From the IMG/VR virus record IMGVR_UViG_2698536428_000008: a stretch of DNA of 12,745 nt; one strand, given 5' to 3'. The position numbers and the translations under genes are program-made. Origin of the DNA: a virus. Lineage: Duplodnaviria > Heunggongvirae > Uroviricota > Caudoviricetes. Shown here piece by piece: positions 1-10,949 of this stretch; the first letter of the stretch is position 1; the number at the start of each line of letters is the position of its first letter. The notes under the pieces are model-generated. The model had not been told where the DNA came from, searched no databases, and saw nothing but the letters and a program-made list of their open reading frames with translations.

Positions 1-180
1 GGTTTCCCCCTGGCGAATACGGGCGGCGAATACCGCAATACAACCGGACGGGCAACGGCTACGCGCTTCGCGTTCCGTCCAGGCGGTTACGTGGATGATT
101 TGAGATTCTGACGCGCCAAAGATGATAAAGCGCCAGATAAATGCGGTTTGAGAATGTACAAGGGTAGGGATAGTAGCCAT
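1..180 (-). CDS. Hypothetical protein, N-terminal 60 codons only; the gene runs off the left edge of the window
   Basis: ATG at 180-178 preceded by a strong Shine-Dalgarno GAGGAGG (complement of 189-195) with 8-nt spacer; the frame stays open to position 1. Translation begins MATIPTLVHSQTAFIWRFIIFGASESQIIHV. The same frame is also stop-free upstream to ~1071, so the true start is uncertain. Family not recognised. Confidence 0.45.
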   Translation of the reverse strand, partial: MATIPTLVHSQTAFIWRFIIFGASESQIIHVTAWTEREARSRCPSGCIAVFAARIRQGET

Positions 181-625
181 GTTGGCAGCCTCCTCAGTGT
201 GGTTAAGATAACCGCCACGCAAAAGGCTAATTTCGCTGGTGGCGGACTGTACAGGGTTAGCCTTACCGGACACTGAAGAAACCGGCGCGGATTGCTCCGC
301 CCCCGTACAGCCCACCATTGATAAGGTGTGACTATGCGGCACAAAAAAACACGCGGGGCGCGTGCTGTGCGCTTCAGTTGTTTTCAGGAGGCTAATCCCG
401 ACACCCGTTTTATGAGGTGCGCGGGAATCATAGCCATTTTTGCTGGTGGCGATCAACTGGTTTTTTACACCCGCTTTATTCAGGTTGTGTGAGTCCCGCC
501 CTTGCGGGTGTGTGGTATGATTTCTCATAGCTACCTCGATACTTTCGCTATCGTTGGTGGTTAGAAGCCCTGCGAGTGGTAACGACACTTGCGGGGCTTT
601 GCATTTATGCACCTTGATAACCTCA

Positions 626-661
626 AGGTGTGGCCCACTATATTCTTTAGGTGTGGCCCAC
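626..661. promoter_or_regulatory. Two copies of AGGTGTGGCCCAC (each containing the palindrome GTGG-c-CCAC), 23 bp apart, upstream of the small RHH gene; candidate operator
   Basis: Exact 13-bp direct repeat at 626-638 and 649-661, read from the sequence; each has an internal inverted repeat. They sit just upstream of a -10-like TATACT at 692-697. Operator function is inferred, not shown. Confidence 0.3.
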
Positions 662-727
662 GTCAAGAGTTTTATTTGTGCTTTTTCTGTGTATACTGTC
701 CCCCACCAATCCAACAGAGGAATAGAA

Positions 728-907
728 ATGGCAACGGGTACAACAAACGCAAAATCACAAGCTCTAAAGGCTCGTGTACCACACGAAATAGTAAACGACA
801 TGGAATTAGTGAAAGAATCAGGCGAAAGCACATCACAATTCATCATTGCGTCAATGCAAGGCGAGATCAAACGCCGCCAGCGCCGCAAGGCCAAAGAGCA
901 GGAATAG
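728..907 (+). CDS. Small ribbon-helix-helix (Arc/CopG-like) DNA-binding protein, 59 aa
   Basis: ATG at 728 with GAGG about 8 nt upstream; it is the in-frame internal start of track ORF 554..907. The sequence KARVPHEIVNDMELVKESGESTSQFIIASMQGEI fits a beta-strand/helix/helix RHH pattern, and the tail is basic (KRRQRRKAKEQE). The fold call is from pattern recognition only. Confidence 0.55.
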   Translation: MATGTTNAKSQALKARVPHEIVNDMELVKESGESTSQFIIASMQGEIKRRQRRKAKEQE

Positions 908-1024
908 CCCACCAGCAAGCCAGCACACTGAGCACATTGCCCACCAGACAGCAAATCGCTATGATGTTCTGGCTTATGTTTAGTGTTTTCCCACTGGCGG
1001 CCCTCTGTGGTCGCCTTTGTTTTG

Positions 1025-1606
1025 TCACTGAATGCGGTTGCCAAAGTAAAACTCAGGCTGATATTCACGTATCAGCCTTTTTTCTTCTTCCTCCAGCTCA
1101 CGCTTTTTGCGCTTACATGCCTGTAGCTCCCTCCCCTTCTGACTGGCACTTATCTGATATTGCTCTTTACGGCGAGAAAAGTCCTGTAATGCGCCCCACG
1201 GGATACCATAAGCCCCCGTTTTTCTGATTCCTGGTATCACATTCCTGAATACCCAGTTACTGAAACGATGGGCGAACGTGCCAGGAGTAACAGCTTTCCG
1301 ACTTCTGGCGATCAGCTTGTAAAAACCGGATTCAGAAATGAGGCTATGATTTGGGTTTCCTCGAATACCGTAGCTTAAAGCGACGGTTTTCTTTTCATCC
1401 GCATCTAGTGCTTTTATAGCATCGCGTGAGTTACTTATTTCCAGAGCAACACAAACATCTTTTGCAACAAACCACGGATCGCCGTTCAGATACACCACAC
1501 GAACGTTCACACTATCAAAGCGCAGAACGACGAGATCACGAATATCGCAGAATTTTTTCACTGGACGAGCGTACCCCTTGCCCGTCACGGCAATATTTTT
1601 ATTCAT
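1025..1606 (-). CDS. Bro-N domain protein (phage antirepressor-like), 193 aa, with a basic, Glu/Lys-rich C-terminal tail
   Basis: Track ORF; ATG at 1606 with AAGG upstream. N-terminal region FCDIRDLVVLRFDSVNVRVVYLNGDPWFVAKDVCVALEISNSRDAIKALDADEKK matches the Bro-N signature (G-PWF-A-DV, DEK). C-terminus KRKKRELEEEEKRLIRE is charged and helix-prone. Confidence 0.8.
   Translation of the reverse strand: MNKNIAVTGKGYARPVKKFCDIRDLVVLRFDSVNVRVVYLNGDPWFVAKDVCVALEISNSRDAIKALDADEKKTVALSYGIRGNPNHSLISESGFYKLIARSRKAVTPGTFAHRFSNWVFRNVIPGIRKTGAYGIPWGALQDFSRRKEQYQISASQKGRELQACKRKKRELEEEEKRLIREYQPEFYFGNRIQ
1055..1091 (+). terminator. Candidate intrinsic terminator for plus-strand transcripts from the RHH gene, embedded in the 3' end of the convergent Bro-N gene
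   Basis: 9-bp stem AGGCTGATA / TATCAGCCT (1055-1063 / 1070-1078) with a 6-nt loop, followed by TTTTTCTTCTTCC. The minus-strand reading also has a U-rich tail, so it may work in both directions. Confidence 0.4.
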
Positions 1607-1623
1607 CGCGTTTTTACCTTATA

Positions 1624-1650
1624 GACAAAAAACCCCTCGTGATGAGGGGC
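1624..1650 (-). terminator. Candidate rho-independent terminator between the alpA-like gene and the Bro-N gene
   Basis: Stem CCCCTC / GAGGGG (1633-1638 / 1644-1649) with a 5-nt loop; on the minus strand the hairpin is followed by TTTTTTGTC. It lies 13 bp after the alpA-like stop and about 26 bp before the Bro-N start. Confidence 0.5.
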
Positions 1651-1662
1651 ATTATTTACTGG

Positions 1663-1920
1663 TTATTGCTGTTTTGTTTTTCCAGGTTTCCATCCAGGAT
1701 GCCACTCACCACGGATCCATGCCTGAACCTCTGAAAGTCGATACCCTGCAGCACGTTCACCGATCTTGATACGTCGCGGGAATTTACCTGCCTGCTCCAT
1801 TTTCCAGCGTGTTGAGTTTGCCAGCGTGGTAAGTGCTATGCACTCTTTTTCACGAATGAACCGATCAATGTCCTTCATTGTGCGCAAATCGTTTTCATCA
1901 ACAAGAGAATAAATTGTCAT
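1663..1920 (-). CDS. alpA: AlpA/Vis-family phage regulatory protein (excisionase-like, helix-turn-helix), 85 aa
   Basis: Track ORF; ATG at 1920 lies 1 nt after the integrase stop, with GAGGTGG upstream (translational coupling). Motif LTTLANSTRWKMEQAGKFPRRIKIGERAAGYRLSEVQAWI matches the AlpA family pattern. Confidence 0.8.
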   Translation of the reverse strand: MTIYSLVDENDLRTMKDIDRFIREKECIALTTLANSTRWKMEQAGKFPRRIKIGERAAGYRLSEVQAWIRGEWHPGWKPGKTKQQ

Positions 1921-1921
1921 A

Positions 1922-3163
1922 TCACACCACCTCTTTATTAAGCTCGATAACGTTGTTGTTAAATCCTGCTATCGTATTAAGGTAATTAACCCACATATTA
2001 AGCACCTCAAGTTTTTTCTTTATATGCCTGCTTTTATTGTAAACACCAGCAACCCCTTTCACTTTATGACCTAAAAGAAGTTCGACAATATAAGGATCCG
2101 CCCCCATATCATTAAGCGCAGTGGAAAATGTGCGCCTGAAATCATGTATGCACCACAAGCCATTAGTATCATGACCAAGACGCCTGCATATTCTGTTTGC
2201 AGCCCCTGTTATTGTCGCCCTTTGCAAAGCACAACCGACAACATAACCGCGATTTTTTGTTTCTGCGTAAAGATTAACGATCCATTGTTTTATACCGTCA
2301 GGAACAGGCCTTACTATGGCCTCCTTGTTTTTGCTGTGCTCTTTTGGGACTGTCCATACCCAGTTTTTTAAATCCCATTCGTCCCAGGTGGATAGCCTCG
2401 CCTCCTGCTGTCGGCAACCAAATACCAGGCAGATAACCATTATTCTTCGGTTATATATTGATGACAGAGTTAGCAAATTATTACCGTAAGCATAAGACCA
2501 TACATCAGCGGTTTCATTGATATTAAGAACGCGCTCCCTTATACCGGATGAGCGCCCGACATAACTTACGTTAATATCTTCAAAGGGATCGCACGCGATG
2601 TATTGCCTGACGCGACAAAAACGCAACGCCTGTTTGATATCAAGAAAAATTGCACCAGACATAACAGGCGCATTTTTTTTGATCCTGTCAAAGACGGTAA
2701 GCCATGTGTGTAATTTGCACTGTTCTATAGCCATATCACCGATATAGGGGAAGATATGCTTTTCAAATCGTTTTATTAAATATTCATGCTCTTTTCTGGC
2801 TGTTGTGGCGTGATTGTCGTACCAGTAAAACAGCGCATCCCTTACGGTCACTGGTTGCATAGTTTTTTCGGCAGCAAGTTTTATTTGCCTGCGGGGGTCC
2901 AGATTTTCAGCCAGCCATTCACGGCACTGATCACGCATGCGCCTGGCCGTTGCAAGAGACATGTCAGGATAGCGACCAAGTGTAAGCCATACCGGAGGGG
3001 ATTCCCTGCCACCAAGACGATAGTAAAAAACAAAGCTGATCCCCCCAACCATGCTTACACGCACAGACAACCCGCGCCCATCCGCTATTGTTTTTTGTTT
3101 GTCCTGCCGTTTTCCGACAAGACTCTTTAACAGTTTGTCACTGAGTTTGTTTTCAATAGCCAT
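1922..3163 (-). CDS. int: Tyrosine-type site-specific recombinase, P4-like integrase (413 aa)
   Basis: Track ORF; ATG at 3163 with GAGGG upstream. N-terminal arm-binding pattern (LSDKLL...DGRGLSVRVS...GGISFVFYYRLGG...LGRYPDMSLATAR...DP) is typical of P4-family integrases; the C-terminal domain has HDFRRT, LLGH and a late Tyr. Confidence 0.93.
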   Translation of the reverse strand: MAIENKLSDKLLKSLVGKRQDKQKTIADGRGLSVRVSMVGGISFVFYYRLGGRESPPVWLTLGRYPDMSLATARRMRDQCREWLAENLDPRRQIKLAAEKTMQPVTVRDALFYWYDNHATTARKEHEYLIKRFEKHIFPYIGDMAIEQCKLHTWLTVFDRIKKNAPVMSGAIFLDIKQALRFCRVRQYIACDPFEDINVSYVGRSSGIRERVLNINETADVWSYAYGNNLLTLSSIYNRRIMVICLVFGCRQQEARLSTWDEWDLKNWVWTVPKEHSKNKEAIVRPVPDGIKQWIVNLYAETKNRGYVVGCALQRATITGAANRICRRLGHDTNGLWCIHDFRRTFSTALNDMGADPYIVELLLGHKVKGVAGVYNKSRHIKKKLEVLNMWVNYLNTIAGFNNNVIELNKEVV

Positions 3164-3181
3164 TAAAAGCCCTCAAGAGAT

Positions 3182-3235
3182 TTGCAATACACACCCATCC
3201 CGATCGCCAATTTGCAATACACATTGCAATACACA
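3182..3235. repeat. Three direct copies of TTGCAATACACA 20-70 bp upstream of the integrase start; candidate integrase arm-type or regulatory sites
   Basis: Exact 12-mer at 3182-3193, 3212-3223 and 3224-3235 (the last two in tandem), read directly. Function is inferred from position next to int and the element junction. Confidence 0.5.
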
Positions 3236-3311
3236 AAACCGCGAAAAACTGGAATGGTGATGAACGGTCATCAAAAGCATGGAAAACGACATTCCAGACG
3301 CAGCAAGGGTT

Positions 3312-6292
<2,981 letters not shown>

Positions 6293-6838: not shown

Positions 6839-7060
6839 TGTTCATTCCACGGACAAAAACAGAGAAAGGAAACGACAGAGGCCAAAAAGCTCGCTTTCAG
6901 CACCTGTCGTTTCCTTTCTTTTCAGAGGGTATTTTAAATAAAAACATTAAGTTATGACGAAGAAGAACGGAAACGCCTTAAACCGGAAAATTTTCATAAA
7001 TAGCGAAAACCCGCGAGGTCGCCGCCCCGTAACCTGTCGGATCGCCGGAAAGGACCCGCA
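6839..7060 (-). other. cos: cos site: cosN 12-nt cohesive end at 7016-7027, cosB between cosN and Nu1, cosQ-side flank to the right
   Basis: Plus strand 7016-7027 is AGGTCGCCGCCC, the reverse complement of the lambda cohesive end GGGCGGCGACCT. The minus-strand sequence from 7027 down reads GGGCGGCGACCTCGCGGGTTTTCGCTATTTATGAAAATTTTCCGG..., matching the lambda left end and leading into Nu1. Confidence 0.85.
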
Positions 7061-7226: not shown

Positions 7227-7421
7227 ATGTCAACGAAGAACAGAACCCGCAGAACAACAACCCGCAACATCCGCTTTCCTAACCAAATGATTGAACAAAT
7301 TAACATCGCTCTTGAGCAAAAAGGGTCTGGGAATTTCTCAGCCTGGGTCATTGAAGCCTGCCGTCGGAGACTAACGTCAGAAAAGAGAGCATATACATCA
7401 ATCCAAAGTGATGATGGATGA
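7227..7421 (+). CDS. ylcI: Small prophage protein (64 aa), probably YlcI/DUF3950-like
   Basis: Track ORF MSTKNRTRRTTTRNIRFPNQMIEQINIALEQKGSGNFSAWVIEACRRRLTSEKRAYTSIQSDDG. Size and position (between cos/Nu1 and bor) fit the ylcI slot of DLP12-like prophages; the family assignment is from memory. Weak RBS. Confidence 0.55.
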   Translation: MSTKNRTRRTTTRNIRFPNQMIEQINIALEQKGSGNFSAWVIEACRRRLTSEKRAYTSIQSDDG

Positions 7422-7781: not shown

Positions 7782-8075
7782 ATGAAAAAAATGTTGTTTT
7801 CTGCCGCTCTGGCAATGCTTATTACAGGATGTGCTCAACAGACGTTTACTGTTGGAAACAAACCGACAGCAGTAACACCAAAGGAAACCATCACCCATCA
7901 TTTCTTCGTTTCGGGAATTGGACAGGAGAAAACTGTTGATGCAGCCAAAATTTGTGGCGGCGCAGAAAATGTTGTTAAAACAGAAACCCAGCAAACATTC
8001 GTAAATGGATTTCTCGGTTTTATTACTTTAGGCATTTATACTCCGCTGGAAGCGCGTGTGTATTGCTCACAATAA
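7782..8075 (+). CDS. bor: Bor outer-membrane lipoprotein (serum-resistance moron), 97 aa
   Basis: ATG at 7782 with AGGAT upstream; internal in-frame start of track ORF 7734..8075. Signal peptide with lipobox LITGC; MKKMLFSAALAMLITGCAQQTFTV...EARVYCSQ matches lambda Bor. Opposite strand to the lysis genes, as in lambda. Confidence 0.95.
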   Translation: MKKMLFSAALAMLITGCAQQTFTVGNKPTAVTPKETITHHFFVSGIGQEKTVDAAKICGGAENVVKTETQQTFVNGFLGFITLGIYTPLEARVYCSQ

Positions 8076-8106: not shown

Positions 8107-8568
8107 CTATCTGCACTGCTCATTAATATACTTCTGGGTTCCTTCCAGTTGTTTTTGCATAGTGATCAGCCTCTCTCTGAGGGTGAAATAATCCCGTTCA
8201 GCGGTGTCTGCCAGTCGGGGGGAGGCTGCATTATCCACGCCGGAGGCGGTGGTGGCTTCACGCACTGACTGACAGACTGCTTTGATGTGCAACCGACGAC
8301 GACCAGCGGCAACATCATCACGCAGAGCATCATTTTCAGCTTTCGCATCAGCTAACTCCTTCGTGTATTTTGCATCGAGCGCAGCAACATCACGCTGACG
8401 CATCTGCATGTCAGTAATTGCCGCGTTCGCCAGCTTCAGTTCTCTGGCATTTTTGTCGCGCTGGGCTTTGTAGGTAATGGCGTTATCACGGTAATGATTA
8501 ACAGCCCATGACAGGCAGACGATGATGCAGATAACCAGAGCGGAGATAATCGCGGTTACTCTGTTCAT
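8107..8568 (-). CDS. Rz: Rz i-spanin (153 aa)
   Basis: ATG at 8568 overlaps the endolysin stop (ATGA); the track ORF extends 4 codons further from a [63 protein letters not shown]... matches lambda Rz (N-terminal TMD, periplasmic coiled coil). Confidence 0.93.
8166..8348 (-). CDS. Rz1: Rz1 o-spanin lipoprotein (60 aa), fully nested in the +1 frame of Rz
   Basis: Track [63 protein letters not shown]: lipobox VVGC and a proline-rich stretch, embedded in Rz as in lambda. Confidence 0.9.
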
Positions 8569-9062
8569 TGCTGACCCCACAAACAGATTTCACGCTCAAT
8601 CTCACGACGAGTCATGAGACCTTTCCATTGCTTACCGCCAGCATATGTCCAGCGACGTAGCTGATCACATGCGCCTTTGATATCGCCCTGGTTTATTTTG
8701 CGAAGAAGCGTCGATGTTCTGAAATTGCCAGCACCCACGTTGTAAACGAATGAGTAAAGAGCGCCGCGCATTGTTTCCGGTATATCGACTTTGATGTACG
8801 GGTTAATTTGTCTGGCGACCGTGGCAAGGTCTTTATTCAGGAGGGCTTTGCATTCTGCTTTGGTATACGTTTTACCGAGCATGATGTCTTTTCCTGTATG
8901 CCCGTGACATACAGTCCATACACCAACAATATCTTTGTATGGTATGTAGCTGACACCTTCCAGACCATCGTTACCACTTGGGCCAGTGATTAACACTGAT
9001 GCTATAGCAATTGCTCCGCCACCAATAGCAGCAGCAACGGCTTTTCGTAATGATGGAGGCAT
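8565..9062 (-). CDS. R: SAR endolysin (phage 21 R / DLP12 RrrD-type lysozyme), 165 aa
   Basis: Track ORF. N-terminal Gly/Ala-rich signal-anchor-release segment ([20 protein letters not shown]) followed by a T4-lysozyme-like E-8-D-5-T catalytic spacing ([17 protein letters not shown]). Start ATG overlaps the holin stop (TAATG). Confidence 0.95.
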
Positions 9063-9277
9063 TATTCACCTCTCGCAGCCTTGCGCTTATCTTCTTTAAT
9101 CTTGAAATAAAGGTTTGTCAGGTACGTCAGCAGGCCAAATACCAGGCTACCCAGCACACCTATTGCTGCCCACTGTGAGGGCGTGACTTTATCGAGCAGC
9201 TGTAAAAACCAGTAACCGGCACTACCTGCTGAGGTGCCATAGGCGACACCCGTTGTTAACTTATCCATGGATTTCAT
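9062..9277 (-). CDS. S: Class II pinholin (phage 21 S / EssD-type) with dual-start motif, 71 aa
   Basis: ATG at 9277 with GAGGTGGGG upstream; the track ORF 9062..9322 starts further upstream from a [74 protein letters not shown] has two TMDs and the M-K-x-M dual-start pattern. Confidence 0.9.
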
Positions 9278-9395
9278 AACCCCACCTCGCAGACAAAGCG
9301 GGTGTAAATTGAGGGAATACAACGTATCGCAAAAAAGCAGAAACGTAACAGACTCGGAGTCAGTGAATAACTCAGGTATTGGGTTATCAGCTAAT

Positions 9396-9440
9396 ATCGA
9401 GACTCAAAAAATGGAAAAACCCGCTCGACGGCGGGTTTAA
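9396..9440 (-). terminator. Strong intrinsic terminator on the minus strand about 120 bp upstream of the holin gene; candidate tR'-like late-leader terminator
   Basis: 8-bp stem AAACCCGC / GCGGGTTT (9417-9424 / 9431-9438) with a 6-nt loop; on the minus strand it is followed by UUUUUCCAUUUUUUG (complement of ~9398-9416). Read directly; the tR' role is inferred by analogy with lambda. Confidence 0.5.
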
Positions 9441-9866
9441 GCTGTGTGACGAAGTAACCACTCTTAACAGCATAACCAATTTTTTACGTACGTAAACCAC
9501 AAAATGATATTTGCGAGAATGCTACCGAGTATTGAAAACACCACTACAAACACATAAGCAAATCTCAACAAATAACCAACAAATAATTTCCAGTGTTATT
9601 TTTAGCCGATTTAAATTGAACCTTCAAATTACAGAGCACTTATAAATAACAGCCGTTAATATAAATTGGCTAATAGATTTATTTTTATTCAGCCAAGATC
9701 CATGAATAGGATTCGATAGAAAAAAGTTCAGATAAAAATAGAGATCTACTTCACAAATCAAACGAGAAACCAAAACTTACATCTTGAAATAATCACATTG
9801 ATTAGATGAATATTTATCGCGCAGTGACATCATTTTTTAATAATAGTTCAAAAAAAAGGGCTCACG

Positions 9867-10949
9867 ATGAAAAAATTAACAGTGGCAATTTCTGCTGTAG
9901 CTGCATCAGTACTGATGGCGATGTCTGCTCAGGCAGCTGAAATTTATAATAAAGACAGTAACAAGCTGGATCTATATGGGAAAGTTAATGCCAAGCACTA
10001 CTTCTCCTCTAATGATGCAGATGATGGTGATACTACTTATGCCCGTCTTGGCTTCAAAGGTGAAACCCAAATCAACGATCAACTGACTGGTTTCGGTCAG
10101 TGGGAATATGAATTCAAAGGCAACCGCGCTGAATCTCAAGGCTCCTCCAAAGACAAAACCCGTCTTGCATTTGCAGGCCTGAAATTCGGGGACTACGGCT
10201 CAATCGATTACGGCCGTAACTACGGTGTAGCATATGACATCGGTGCGTGGACTGACGTTCTGCCAGAATTCGGTGGCGATACCTGGACCCAAACAGATGT
10301 GTTCATGACTGGTCGCACCACTGGTGTTGCAACTTATCGTAACAACGACTTCTTTGGTCTGGTTGATGGTCTGAACTTTGCTGCTCAGTATCAGGGTAAA
10401 AATGACCGCACTGACGTAACTGAAGCTAATGGTGATGGTTTCGGTTTCTCCACTACTTATGAGTATGAAGGATTCGGTGTAGGTGCAACCTATGCTAAAT
10501 CTGACCGCACTAATAATCAGGTTATCTACGGTAACAACAGCCTGAATGCATCTGGTCAAAATGCTGAAGTATGGGCAGCTGGTCTGAAATATGATGCGAA
10601 CAACATCTATCTGGCTACCACCTATTCTGAAACCCAGAACATGACTGTTTTTGGTAATAACCATATTGCCAACAAAGCACAAAACTTCGAAGTAGTTGCA
10701 CAATATCAGTTCGACTTCGGTCTGCGTCCATCCGTTGCTTACCTGCAATCTAAAGGAAAAGACTTGGGTGCGTGGGGTGATCAGGACCTGGTTGAATATA
10801 TTGATGTAGGTGCAACCTATTACTTCAACAAAAATATGTCCACTTTTGTTGATTACAAAATCAACCTGATTGATAAGAGCGATTTCACGAAAGCATCTGG
10901 CGTTGCTACCGATGATATCGTTGCTGTAGGTATGGTTTACCAGTTCTAA
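9867..10949 (+). CDS. nmpC: General-diffusion outer-membrane porin, OmpC/OmpF/NmpC family (360 aa), apparently intact
   Basis: Track ORF; signal peptide [23 protein letters not shown] then [24 protein letters not shown]; C-terminal ...VGMVYQF with the terminal Phe typical of porins. Position between Q and the lysis cassette on the opposite strand matches nmpC of DLP12-like prophages. Confidence 0.93.

Follow-up and report, generated by a model that had tools for sequence, protein, structure and literature searches.

Bases 1-3371 of the window, the 12,745-nt stretch of DNA analysed here, very probably (at roughly 85%) comprise the Integration zone and the Bro zone of a PICI of the helper-embedded kind (HE-PICI) that integrated by means of its own tyrosine integrase at AAGGCGAT, around codon 276 in the portal gene of a prophage resembling lambda, where it is co-oriented with the helper late operon. 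The satellite is a further copy of the HE-PICI class described in 2023 and no new kind of element. A first-pass annotation had proposed that a satellite of the PICI or P4 type has its regulatory end here, beside a helper-type prophage, and all the parts that it listed were found: an integrase gene (int), alpA one base past the int stop codon, a terminator hairpin, a gene for a Bro-N protein, a small RHH gene that converges on it and comes with two perfect 13-nt repeats, and a leftward unit. Three complete relatives (L001, L002 and L003), each an element of ~11 kb, uphold this reading. A helper-type prophage does adjoin the satellite, which is, however, not merely next to the helper terminase genes but embedded in the helper portal gene; likewise, the limit previously set at 3163 has to be moved, as the element runs on to an att core at 3364-3371 within that gene. 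The window is an entire contig that ends inside icd; of the four successive HE-PICI zones (Integration, Bro, Replication, Late) it shows the first two, and the Replication zone, the Late zone, attR and the rest of the helper are seen only in relatives whose Int, AlpA and Bro proteins are 99-100% identical (in L001, L002 and L003 this figure is for Int and AlpA).

The int-proximal junction between portal gene and satellite was defined by comparing attL (window, L001 and L002) with attR (L001 and L002). The identity block at 3371-3364 is common to attL and the L002 attR, and it is the block 'aaggcgat' given for the B_Phage_portal_2_241 HE-PICIs in the supplement of PMC10111431. The adjoining N-terminal fragment of the helper portal gene (lambda gpB family; 3364-4193, minus strand, 276 codons) matches Pfam Phage_portal_2 with E=4e-64 over profile positions 2-242 of 354 only; the ORF as listed extends to 3312 through 17 satellite-derived, unrelated codons. 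In the complete relatives the C-terminal half lies ~11 kb off and is followed by gpC, D, E and the tail genes. The portal gene is thus split without replacement sequence from the satellite, as is characteristic of HE-PICIs, the attR side being taken from the relatives. When joined, the two halves are 100% identical to intact portal genes over 402 nt; the predicted attB contains GTGAAGGCGATGTATGCC and the predicted attP contains CATAAAGGCGATTTATGTC. Because the halves rejoin perfectly, the junction is one of insertion and not of deletion, which argues against a prophage's own integration/immunity module lying here at a deletion junction. A prophage int, moreover, adjoins bacterial DNA at the prophage end, which is not so in the window; this explanation, together with that of a P4-like satellite considered below, is highly improbable. 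The first-pass annotation had named, as part of what would refute its reading, a left side of ordinary chromosomal genes with no second att site; this is ruled out by the relatives, which carry such a site with the portal gene resuming beyond it. Across 5426 complete E. coli genomes the same occupied junction was present in 64 (~1%), and the empty site in 3119. The window is a tidy, sharply bounded case from the portal-gene group.

The tyrosine integrase (1922-3163, minus strand; identified by its Pfam domains) belongs by its BLASTP score to the HE-PICI clade, being 53% identical to the Int of the founding HE-PICI 11capE with 470 bits; the clade cut-off in PMC10111431 was 400 bits in TBLASTN combined with a tree. 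Five loci (L001-L005) share 407-411 of its 413 residues. The start codon of alpA (1663-1920, minus strand) lies 1 nt past the int stop, with no intergenic promoter region, and its product, a member of an excisionase/activator family, matches Pfam Phage_AlpA and PHROG 2790 ('excisionase and transcriptional regulator'), is identical across five loci and shares 67% of its residues with the AlpA of 11capE. An intrinsic-terminator-like hairpin with a T-run follows (1632-1650, minus strand). Between int and the att core lies the doubled HE-PICI motif tgTGTATTGCAatgTGTATTGCa (3213-3235, minus strand), which probably represents arm-type Int sites. The doubled motif tgTGTATTGCantgTGTATTGCa has been described as unique to HE-PICIs, at 132 +/- 2 bp and 81 +/- 2 bp from the att centre (PMC10111431); here the start of the doubled TGTATTGC motif and the centre of the att core are 132.5 bp apart. 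A second doubled copy is present at the far end of L001, L002 and L003, at 78-100 bp according to the reference point, a spacing that in L001 only approximates the published one. A single third copy of the TGTGTATTGCAAAT motif (3180-3193, minus strand), which lies 17 nt upstream of where int starts, is conserved in all three complete relatives.

These features are those of the HE-PICIs of site group B:Phage_portal_2:241, such as Eco10269.11 and Eco14781.11 (Tommasini, Mageeney & Williams 2023, NAR Genom Bioinform; PMC10111431). Like them, the element has entered this gene at this codon; it also has their block aaggcgat and flanking attL sequence, the doubled TGTATTGC motif at the spacing that they show, an int-alpA pair, a Bro zone with C4 and isrK RNAs, and co-orientation with the late genes, and we found no difference of substance. 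The comparison with Eco567.11capE of E. coli NRG857c, the founding and only experimentally studied HE-PICI (PMC10111431), is more mixed. Both join int to alpA with 1 nt in between and have a YlcI/YnfO gene on the reverse strand and a gene resembling icd, and 11capE also has DUF4222, primase, SSB, capsid and decoration genes. Unlike the present element, it sits in the capsid gene E rather than the portal gene B, with the core aacccaagca, lacks a co-oriented Bro-N gene behind alpA as well as any C4 or isrK match, and has HEPN and DUF262 as cargo. A regulatory end of int and alpA, pri-rep, capsid genes resembling gpE and gpD, a length of ~11 kb and lambdoid cos helpers are likewise features of EcCICFT073 and other Gram-negative PICIs (Fillol-Salom et al. 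2018; PMC6092414); PICIs of this type, however, are inserted in the chromosome and their interplay with the helper is solely in trans, while the present element lies inside the late operon of its helper. Neither LPUN01 nor GCA_001609315, the accessions of this assembly, was found in the part of the PMC10111431 supplement that was searched. Truncation of the contig would have made this element hard to map in the HE-PICI survey.

The gene order of the ~11-kb relatives is int-alpA-bro-RHH-(icd)-DUF4222-primase or RepA helicase-SSB-capsid-decoration, and in L001-L003 the primase is co-oriented with the interrupted late gene. L001-L003 have genes resembling lambda gpE and gpD, and their helper is a lambdoid prophage rather than one of the P2 kind. 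Beyond the major capsid and decoration genes there is just a small-terminase (TerS)-like gene, in L001 and L002; the relatives have no portal, protease, head-tail connector or large terminase gene of their own, and the element is thus not a capsid-forming PICI (cf-PICI). A tRNA-targeting island was also dropped, the tRNA search of the window having found none. Several traits recall P4. The integrase is of the P4 type (Arm-DNA-bind_3), AlpA is a homologue of Vis, and CI/C4-type RNA immunity with an 'Ash' ORF is a hallmark of P4, in whose immunity region (P_LE-kil/eta-cI, Vis) as well as here an AlpA/Vis homologue stands upstream of a Bro-network or 'Ash' ORF that holds a CI/C4-type RNA and its targets, with a primase operon downstream. 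Unlike P4, however, no psu, sid or delta gene was annotated or called in L001, L002 or L003, the capsid and decoration genes are of lambda type and the helper is lambdoid rather than P2; moreover, alpA is coupled to int, a terminator precedes the next gene, and an additional RHH gene is accompanied by repeats of its own. We class the satellite as a PICI rather than as a P4-like element.

The Bro zone opens with a gene for a 193-aa Bro-N domain protein (1025-1606, minus strand; Pfam Bro-N, PHROG 2593), identical in L003-L008. It faces the sole rightward gene of the module, which encodes a 59-aa RHH protein of the YlcI/YnfO family (728-907, plus strand); downstream of the latter are two terminator-like hairpins (996-1015 and 1055-1078; 996-1078 together, plus strand), the second within the 3' end of bro. 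The profile searches proposed at first pass thus gave the expected families for AlpA and Bro-N, but not for the RHH protein, for which Pfam gave no match even at E<=1, nor the PDB any sequence match at E<=10. A predicted RHH fold is nevertheless supported, and the proposed kinship with the helper YlcI is based on the match of both to PHROG 949, the NCBIfam YlcI/YnfO model having been scanned against the satellite protein alone; a direct BLASTP comparison of the two proteins was not significant (E=0.08). Upstream of the RHH gene, the region 617-666 contains the operator-like direct repeats AGGTGTGGCCCAC (626-638 and 649-661). On the opposite strand a leftward promoter-like site, TTGACG-18-TATAGT, occupies 666-637, such that one 13-nt repeat overlaps the -10 element and the other abuts the -35 hexamer. 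The repeats accompany this RHH allele only (L004 and L008), with no further copy in the window, the helper ylcI and the vicinity of cos included. RHH alleles and their intergenic repeats vary together, whereas AlpA stays the same in five loci.

The first-pass annotation had assigned the leftward unit to a single gene of unrecognised family. A unit of that direction exists, but the evidence supports its interpretation as a P1/P4-style RNA immunity cassette composed of a predicted leader resembling isrK, an antisense RNA of the C4 type and an ORF resembling icd. The leader (344-420, minus strand) matches Rfam RF01394 with 61.8 bits against a gathering score of 50, carries the putative target sites a1 (398-389) and b1 (378-372), and in the predicted fold ends in a terminator hairpin with a U-run. 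It is followed by the C4-type immunity RNA (235-322, minus strand), which matches Rfam RF01695 with 75.4 bits against a gathering score of 45 and is supported by the compensatory changes given below; its predicted fold (z=-5.46) leaves both recognition elements, b' (279-270) and a' (263-254), without a pairing partner. Downstream target sites (191-230, minus strand) comprise a2 (230-224, UUAGCCU) and b2 (200-191, ACACUGAGGA), the latter over the icd Shine-Dalgarno sequence; the predicted b'/b2 pairing is of 10 bp and spans its GAGGA. Between the window (UUAGCCU/AGGCUAA) and L001 (UUGGCGU/ACGCCAA) the elements a1, a' and a2 show three-way covariation, and b1 and b' covary in a prophage copy. 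Full-length duplex folding of the C4 RNA with its targets, a calculation that ignores intramolecular structure, beats shuffled sequences and is otherwise uninformative; the pairing is judged instead by the free loops and the covariation. Score, unpaired loops and cover of the icd ribosome-binding site thus all agree with a C4 immunity cassette, for which the function is predicted. The icd-like ORF (1-180, minus strand, ATG at 180-178; NCBIfam phage_ICD_like, E=4e-15) is cut by the contig end.

The practical use of this example is in annotation. The icd-like ORF shares its reading frame with a longer 'Ash family' ORF that begins at 528, and the Pfam Phage_ASH match (432-151) corresponds exactly to the two RNA genes; at loci of this sort, annotations such as 'truncated portal' and 'ash family protein' stem from the insertion and from RNA genes. 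We rejected ORF 87-344 (minus strand), the mechanical candidate for the leftward gene, which has no family match and runs out of frame over the C4 RNA, and did not regard as a gene the upstream extension of a 267-codon minus-strand ORF from 801 (called 'Phage_ASH' by the gene caller), an extension that is antisense to the RHH gene and is seen only alongside the same cassette. The order of the parts, with target sites, C4 RNA, and target sites over the icd ribosome-binding site followed by icd, resembles that of P1/P7 immI (c4-icd-ant), as does a specificity residing in two short loops that covary with their targets; unlike in immI, satellite replication genes rather than an antirepressor gene follow icd. 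The scheme for P1 immI reportedly goes back to Citron and Schuster in 1990. Being absent from L002, L003 and 11capE, of which L002 and L003 are otherwise near-identical elements, the isrK-C4 cassette is not essential to the HE-PICI class.

In the lysogen, we propose, the helper late operon would be silent and with it int-alpA, for which no separate promoter is recognisable; a simple scan of the minus strand from 3364 to 3163 revealed no promoter-like or terminator-like site. The RHH protein would shut the leftward promoter by occupying the two 13-nt repeats, and leakage would be stopped by the RNA cassette, with the C4-type RNA pairing to the isrK-like leader and to the icd ribosome-binding site. 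Such pairing would block icd translation and, through termination or polarity as in P1 immI and P4 CI, the downstream replication genes. Upon induction, Q-modified late transcription from pR' would cross Nu1, A, W and the portal fragment (all on the minus strand, as are int, alpA and bro), enter int-alpA, pass the hairpin after alpA, which would halt ordinary transcription not modified by Q, and proceed into bro and beyond. Int and AlpA would then excise the satellite and restore an intact portal gene, so that the helper would make heads only once the satellite is free; AlpA would activate satellite promoters, and the satellite would replicate and be packaged by helper proteins. HE-PICIs are an unusual case of parasites inside an essential gene of their own helper virus, which builds no heads until the parasite leaves, and they are replicated and transcribed passively with it. 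Late-operon read-through, occupation of the repeats by the RHH protein and the action of the C4 RNA are inferred from sequence, and excision with late timing, following composite replication, has been demonstrated by experiment for 11capE only (PMC10111431).

The same element might instead be triggered in trans, a helper product inducing an alpA promoter in the 3' part of int and AlpA activating the rest, with portal read-through minor or irrelevant. AlpA is an activator required for induction in EcCICFT073, where its expression is turned on in trans by the helper, AlpA activates itself and AlpA overexpression alone induces the island (PMC6092414); cis read-through need not, therefore, be the trigger. 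The terminator-like hairpin after alpA and a weak promoter-like site within int (2467-2439), detected by scanning, fit such a scheme as well. Against it stand the missing intergenic promoter region between int and alpA and the late excision of 11capE after composite replication, and the co-orientation with the late operon in every locus seen and in all 491 published HE-PICIs is hard to explain by control in trans alone. We regard a trans trigger as the less likely arrangement, albeit one to be taken seriously, and favour induction through the late operon.

The proposed role of the RHH protein admits a bolder extension. This YlcI/YnfO-family member might be the protein repressor so far seemingly absent from Gram-negative PICIs, closing the leftward replication promoter through allele-specific 13-nt operators; as a paralogue of the helper YlcI, which belongs to the same PHROG and is encoded next to cos, it might also be a point of cross-talk between helper and satellite, and the satellite C4 RNA might share its specificity with prophage immI-type C4 RNAs. 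We offer this as a speculation with the odds well against it; were it true, satellite and prophages could read each other's immunity state. The Bro zone of the window, with its RHH gene and two operator-like repeats and its C4-type RNA and covarying targets, in any case makes a compact test bed for satellite silencing.

The element, the helper or both could be defective in this genome. Decay of either would leave a stranded, immobile module, with the contig end reflecting a real truncation or an IS insertion. The contig does stop within icd, many HE-PICI helpers look truncated and no virions have been recovered even for 11capE (PMC10111431), and the annotation of L001 lists the counterpart 'ash' ORF and another ORF beside it as pseudogenes. 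Every ORF in the window is intact, however, and the near-complete identity of Int, AlpA and Bro to the proteins of complete elements also speaks against decay, which we consider unlikely, more so than a trigger in trans, and we retain the reading of an HE-PICI whose remainder lies beyond the contig. Over its final 109 nt the contig matches L003, otherwise the carrier of a different Bro-zone variant, with 100% identity, a pattern to be expected where an assembler halts at a sequence repeated in the genome. The combination of Bro-zone cassettes in the window may be a particular mosaic.

The window turned out to span a complete contig, LPUN01000112.1, of assembly GCA_001609315.1 (its reverse complement is locus L006), so that no extension was possible within its own assembly. 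Nearly everything in it lies on the minus strand. With gene names taken from the near-identical annotated loci L001 (CP166879) and L002 (CP062871), the helper genes read, from right to left, ninE, ybcO, rusA and Q (quuD), then porin (+), S, R, Rz/Rz1, bor (+), ylcI (+), Nu1, A, W and the portal ORF. These genes make up the late operon of a lambda-like (DLP12-type) prophage, and the satellite module directly continues it on the same strand. What we take to be a lambda-type cos region lies at about 6950-7035, between Nu1 and ylcI (reverse complement GGGCGGCGACCTCGCGGGTTTTCGCTATTTATGAAAATTTTCCGG). The Rz1 ORF (8166-8348, -) is nested in Rz (8107-8580), a bor/iss-type lipoprotein gene (7782-8075, +) opposes the late operon, and a Porin_1 gene of 360 aa (9867-10949, +) stands on the opposite strand between Q and the lysis genes. 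This gene, which carries the annotation "porin OmpC" in the L002 prophage (near-identical to the helper here) and is frameshifted in L001, is preceded by a stretch of 32-36% GC (flanks 9250-9850) and looks like a lysogenic-conversion "moron".

The portal gene is present as a fragment only, covering positions 2-242 of the 354 of the Pfam Phage_portal_2 profile, and the element extends beyond 3163, with three copies of TGTGTATTGCAA(A)T between int and this fragment. Alignment of the junctions showed that portal sequence stops at GTGAAGGCGAT in the window and that the far junction in L002 reads CATAAAGGCGAT-GTATGCC, the block common to both being AAGGCGAT (window 3371-3364). A synthetic empty site, assembled from 200 nt of portal sequence of the window and 200 nt downstream from L001, aligned with intact "phage portal protein" genes at 100% identity across 402 nt; the intact site occurs in 3119 of 5426 complete E. 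coli genomes and the occupied junction in 64 genomes.

A megablast search with window positions 1-3400 returned partial matches in most genomes and two good ones, and the whole element was read from L001, L002 and contig L003, which encodes an identical Bro protein. In these relatives an island of about 11 kb interrupts portal in a lambdoid prophage that looks complete in other respects. The portal N-fragment is followed by int, alpA, bro and a reverse-strand YlcI/YnfO gene; by icd-like and other small ORFs and DUF4222; by a primase or RepA-type helicase and SSB; by PerC in some, a gpE-like capsid gene, a gpD-like decoration gene and, in L001 and L002, a small-terminase-like gene; and finally by the portal C-fragment and helper genes gpC, D, E, FI, Z/U/V and G. 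The first-pass reading of the module as the regulatory end of a satellite or PICI is thus supported by the replication and capsid genes and by a far junction that lies in portal.

A total of 491 helper-embedded PICIs (HE-PICIs) have been described, distributed over 14 sites within late genes of lambda type; their int, alpA and primase genes run in the direction of the late gene. The elements are organised in four zones (Integration, Bro, Replication and Late), some Bro zones containing C4 and isrK matches (Tommasini, Mageeney & Williams 2023, PMC10111431). For site group B:Phage_portal_2:241 the supplement to that study lists "aaggcgat" as the identity block, together with an attL that matches the one in the window. 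For the doubled motif tgTGTATTGCantgTGTATTGCa, unique to HE-PICIs, the reported distances from the attP centre are 81 +/- 2 bp and 132 +/- 2 bp (PMC10111431); the copy in the window (3235-3213, -) starts 132.5 bp from the core centre, and L001, L002 and L003 each have a second doubled copy at their far end. The integrase is 53% identical (470 bits, above the 400-bit cutoff of PMC10111431) to that of the founding element, 11capE of E. coli NRG857c, and AlpA is 67% identical to its 11capE counterpart. In 11capE, too, a single nucleotide separates int from alpA, and the element has an icd-like gene and, on the reverse strand, a YlcI/YnfO gene with 56% identity in the RHH core. Because of this site and identity block, motif spacing, protein likeness and gene arrangement, the element belongs, on sequence criteria, to a published group, occupies a site already reported, and is a further instance of a described class. 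A P4-like satellite was rejected, since L001-L003 lack annotated psu, sid and delta and the helper is lambdoid, as was a capsid-forming PICI, since L001-L003 do not encode their own portal, protease, connectors or large terminase. The remaining interest lies in the putative regulatory parts, namely the RHH protein with its repeats, its kinship to helper ylcI, and a C4 specificity common to prophage copies.

The first gene pair was as the first-pass annotation had described it. The int gene (1922-3163; Arm-DNA-bind_3, Phage_int_M and Phage_integrase domains) and alpA (1663-1920; Phage_AlpA, E=4.7e-14) are separated by a single base, GAGGTGGTGTGA-T-ATG, with the alpA Shine-Dalgarno sequence inside the end of int. 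The expected hairpin terminator was found, with a T-run, at 1650-1632, 13 nt past alpA (-12.7 kcal/mol, z=-3.05), as was the Bro-N gene (1025-1606, domain match), whose product can be assigned only to the "anti-repressor" Bro-N network and, judging by gene position, would be co-produced with Int and AlpA. A scan of the minus strand between the junction and int revealed no promoter-like or terminator-like site, and the genes between Q and bro, these two included, all point the same way (-), save porin, bor and ylcI; the read-through proposal of the authors of PMC10111431 therefore fits. Q-modified late transcription would continue beyond the portal fragment to cover int-alpA and would read past the hairpin behind alpA, and Int together with AlpA, a Vis/excisionase-type protein, would excise the island and remake an intact portal. 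Measurements on 11capE showed that its excision is precise and comes late, following composite replication (PMC10111431). Induction of EcCICFT073 requires AlpA as an activator, and there the helper turns on alpA in trans (PMC6092414), so similar switching may be a live alternative, or an addition, to read-through.

The convergent small RHH gene (728-907, +) encodes a YlcI/YnfO-family protein of 59 aa and is genuine despite its length, since all 52 database relatives measure 56-67 aa. Its operator-like repeats were also recovered, as two perfect copies of AGGTGTGGCCCAC (626-638 and 649-661) upstream of the gene; at least two matches arose in only 3 of 200 shuffles. The region's best promoter-like site, a leftward TTGACG-18-TATAGT (666..637), has one copy overlapping its -10 hexamer and the other directly adjoining its -35 hexamer; from this placement the RHH protein is predicted to repress it. 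One and the same AlpA sequence occurs in the window, L002, L003, L004 and L005, while RHH alleles diverge among these loci (26-31 of 57 residues identical, or unalignable), the intergenic repeats differ with each allele, and the 13-mer is confined to loci carrying the allele of the window. Because the repeats vary with RHH and AlpA stays constant, they are more likely candidate RHH operators than AlpA sites. The helper ylcI gene (7227-7421, +; DUF3950), which adjoins cos, shares PHROG 949 with the RHH gene (E=2e-35 and 3e-22, respectively), with pairwise BLASTP identity of only about 17%.

The leftward gene assigned to an unknown family is present, but it resolved into a set of known elements on the minus strand: an isrK-like RNA (420-344; Rfam, 61.8 bits, gathering score 50), a C4 antisense RNA (322-235; 75.4 bits, gathering score 45) and an Icd-like ORF (ATG at 180-178) that runs off the contig end. 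The Pfam "Ash" match reported by gene callers spans exactly the two RNA genes. An ORF at 432-151 (-) that matches Phage_ASH and several "transcriptional repressor/regulator" PHROGs coincides with them too; for the most part, such protein families may be no more than translations of conserved RNA genes. The fold predicted for C4 (z=-5.46) leaves loop UUUCUUCAGUGU and stretch AAGGCUAA unpaired. The loop is complementary to ACACUGAGGA at 200-191, covering the icd Shine-Dalgarno sequence, and to ACUGAAG in the isrK-like leader; the stretch is complementary to UUAGCCU twice, once at 230-224 and once in the hairpin loop of the leader (398-389). Between L001 (UUGGCGU/ACGCCAA/UUGGCGU) and the window (UUAGCCU/AGGCUAA/UUAGCCU), the three "a" sites have changed in concert, as have the "b" loop and its upstream target in the prophage copy of L002 (UUGAGUAG and CUACUCAA). 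The P1/P7 c4-icd immunity system follows the same logic, and that of P4 CI/seqA is similar; the C4 RNA would hold icd off and, by polarity, the replication operon. The cassette is optional: the window, L001 and L005 have it, but the L002, L003 and 11capE satellites do not. The helper early region of L002 (28118-28300, -) has its own isrK-C4 pair beside a P22AR-type antirepressor gene, with the same "a" sites (UUGGCGU/ACGCCAA) as the L001 satellite, which makes RNA cross-immunity between satellites and prophages conceivable.

Window positions 6-466 match L005 at 97% and 475-1100 match L004 at 99.8%; L003 matches only at 1-109 and 878-1100 (99-100%). With sharp breakpoints near 467-475 and 878-927, the Bro zone is by sequence comparison a patchwork of exchangeable cassettes, in agreement with PMC10111431. 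The contig ends inside icd, and over its final 109 nt it is 100% identical to L003, a different satellite variant; this exact match suggests that the assembly broke off at a sequence of which the genome has more than one copy, possibly in a second PICI. Cargo varies between elements, outside the window: 11capE has a HEPN and DUF262 gene pair at its late end (L009, 10037-11753) and the L002 helper a NACHT-domain gene (28683-30578), both of which look like defence-type cargo.
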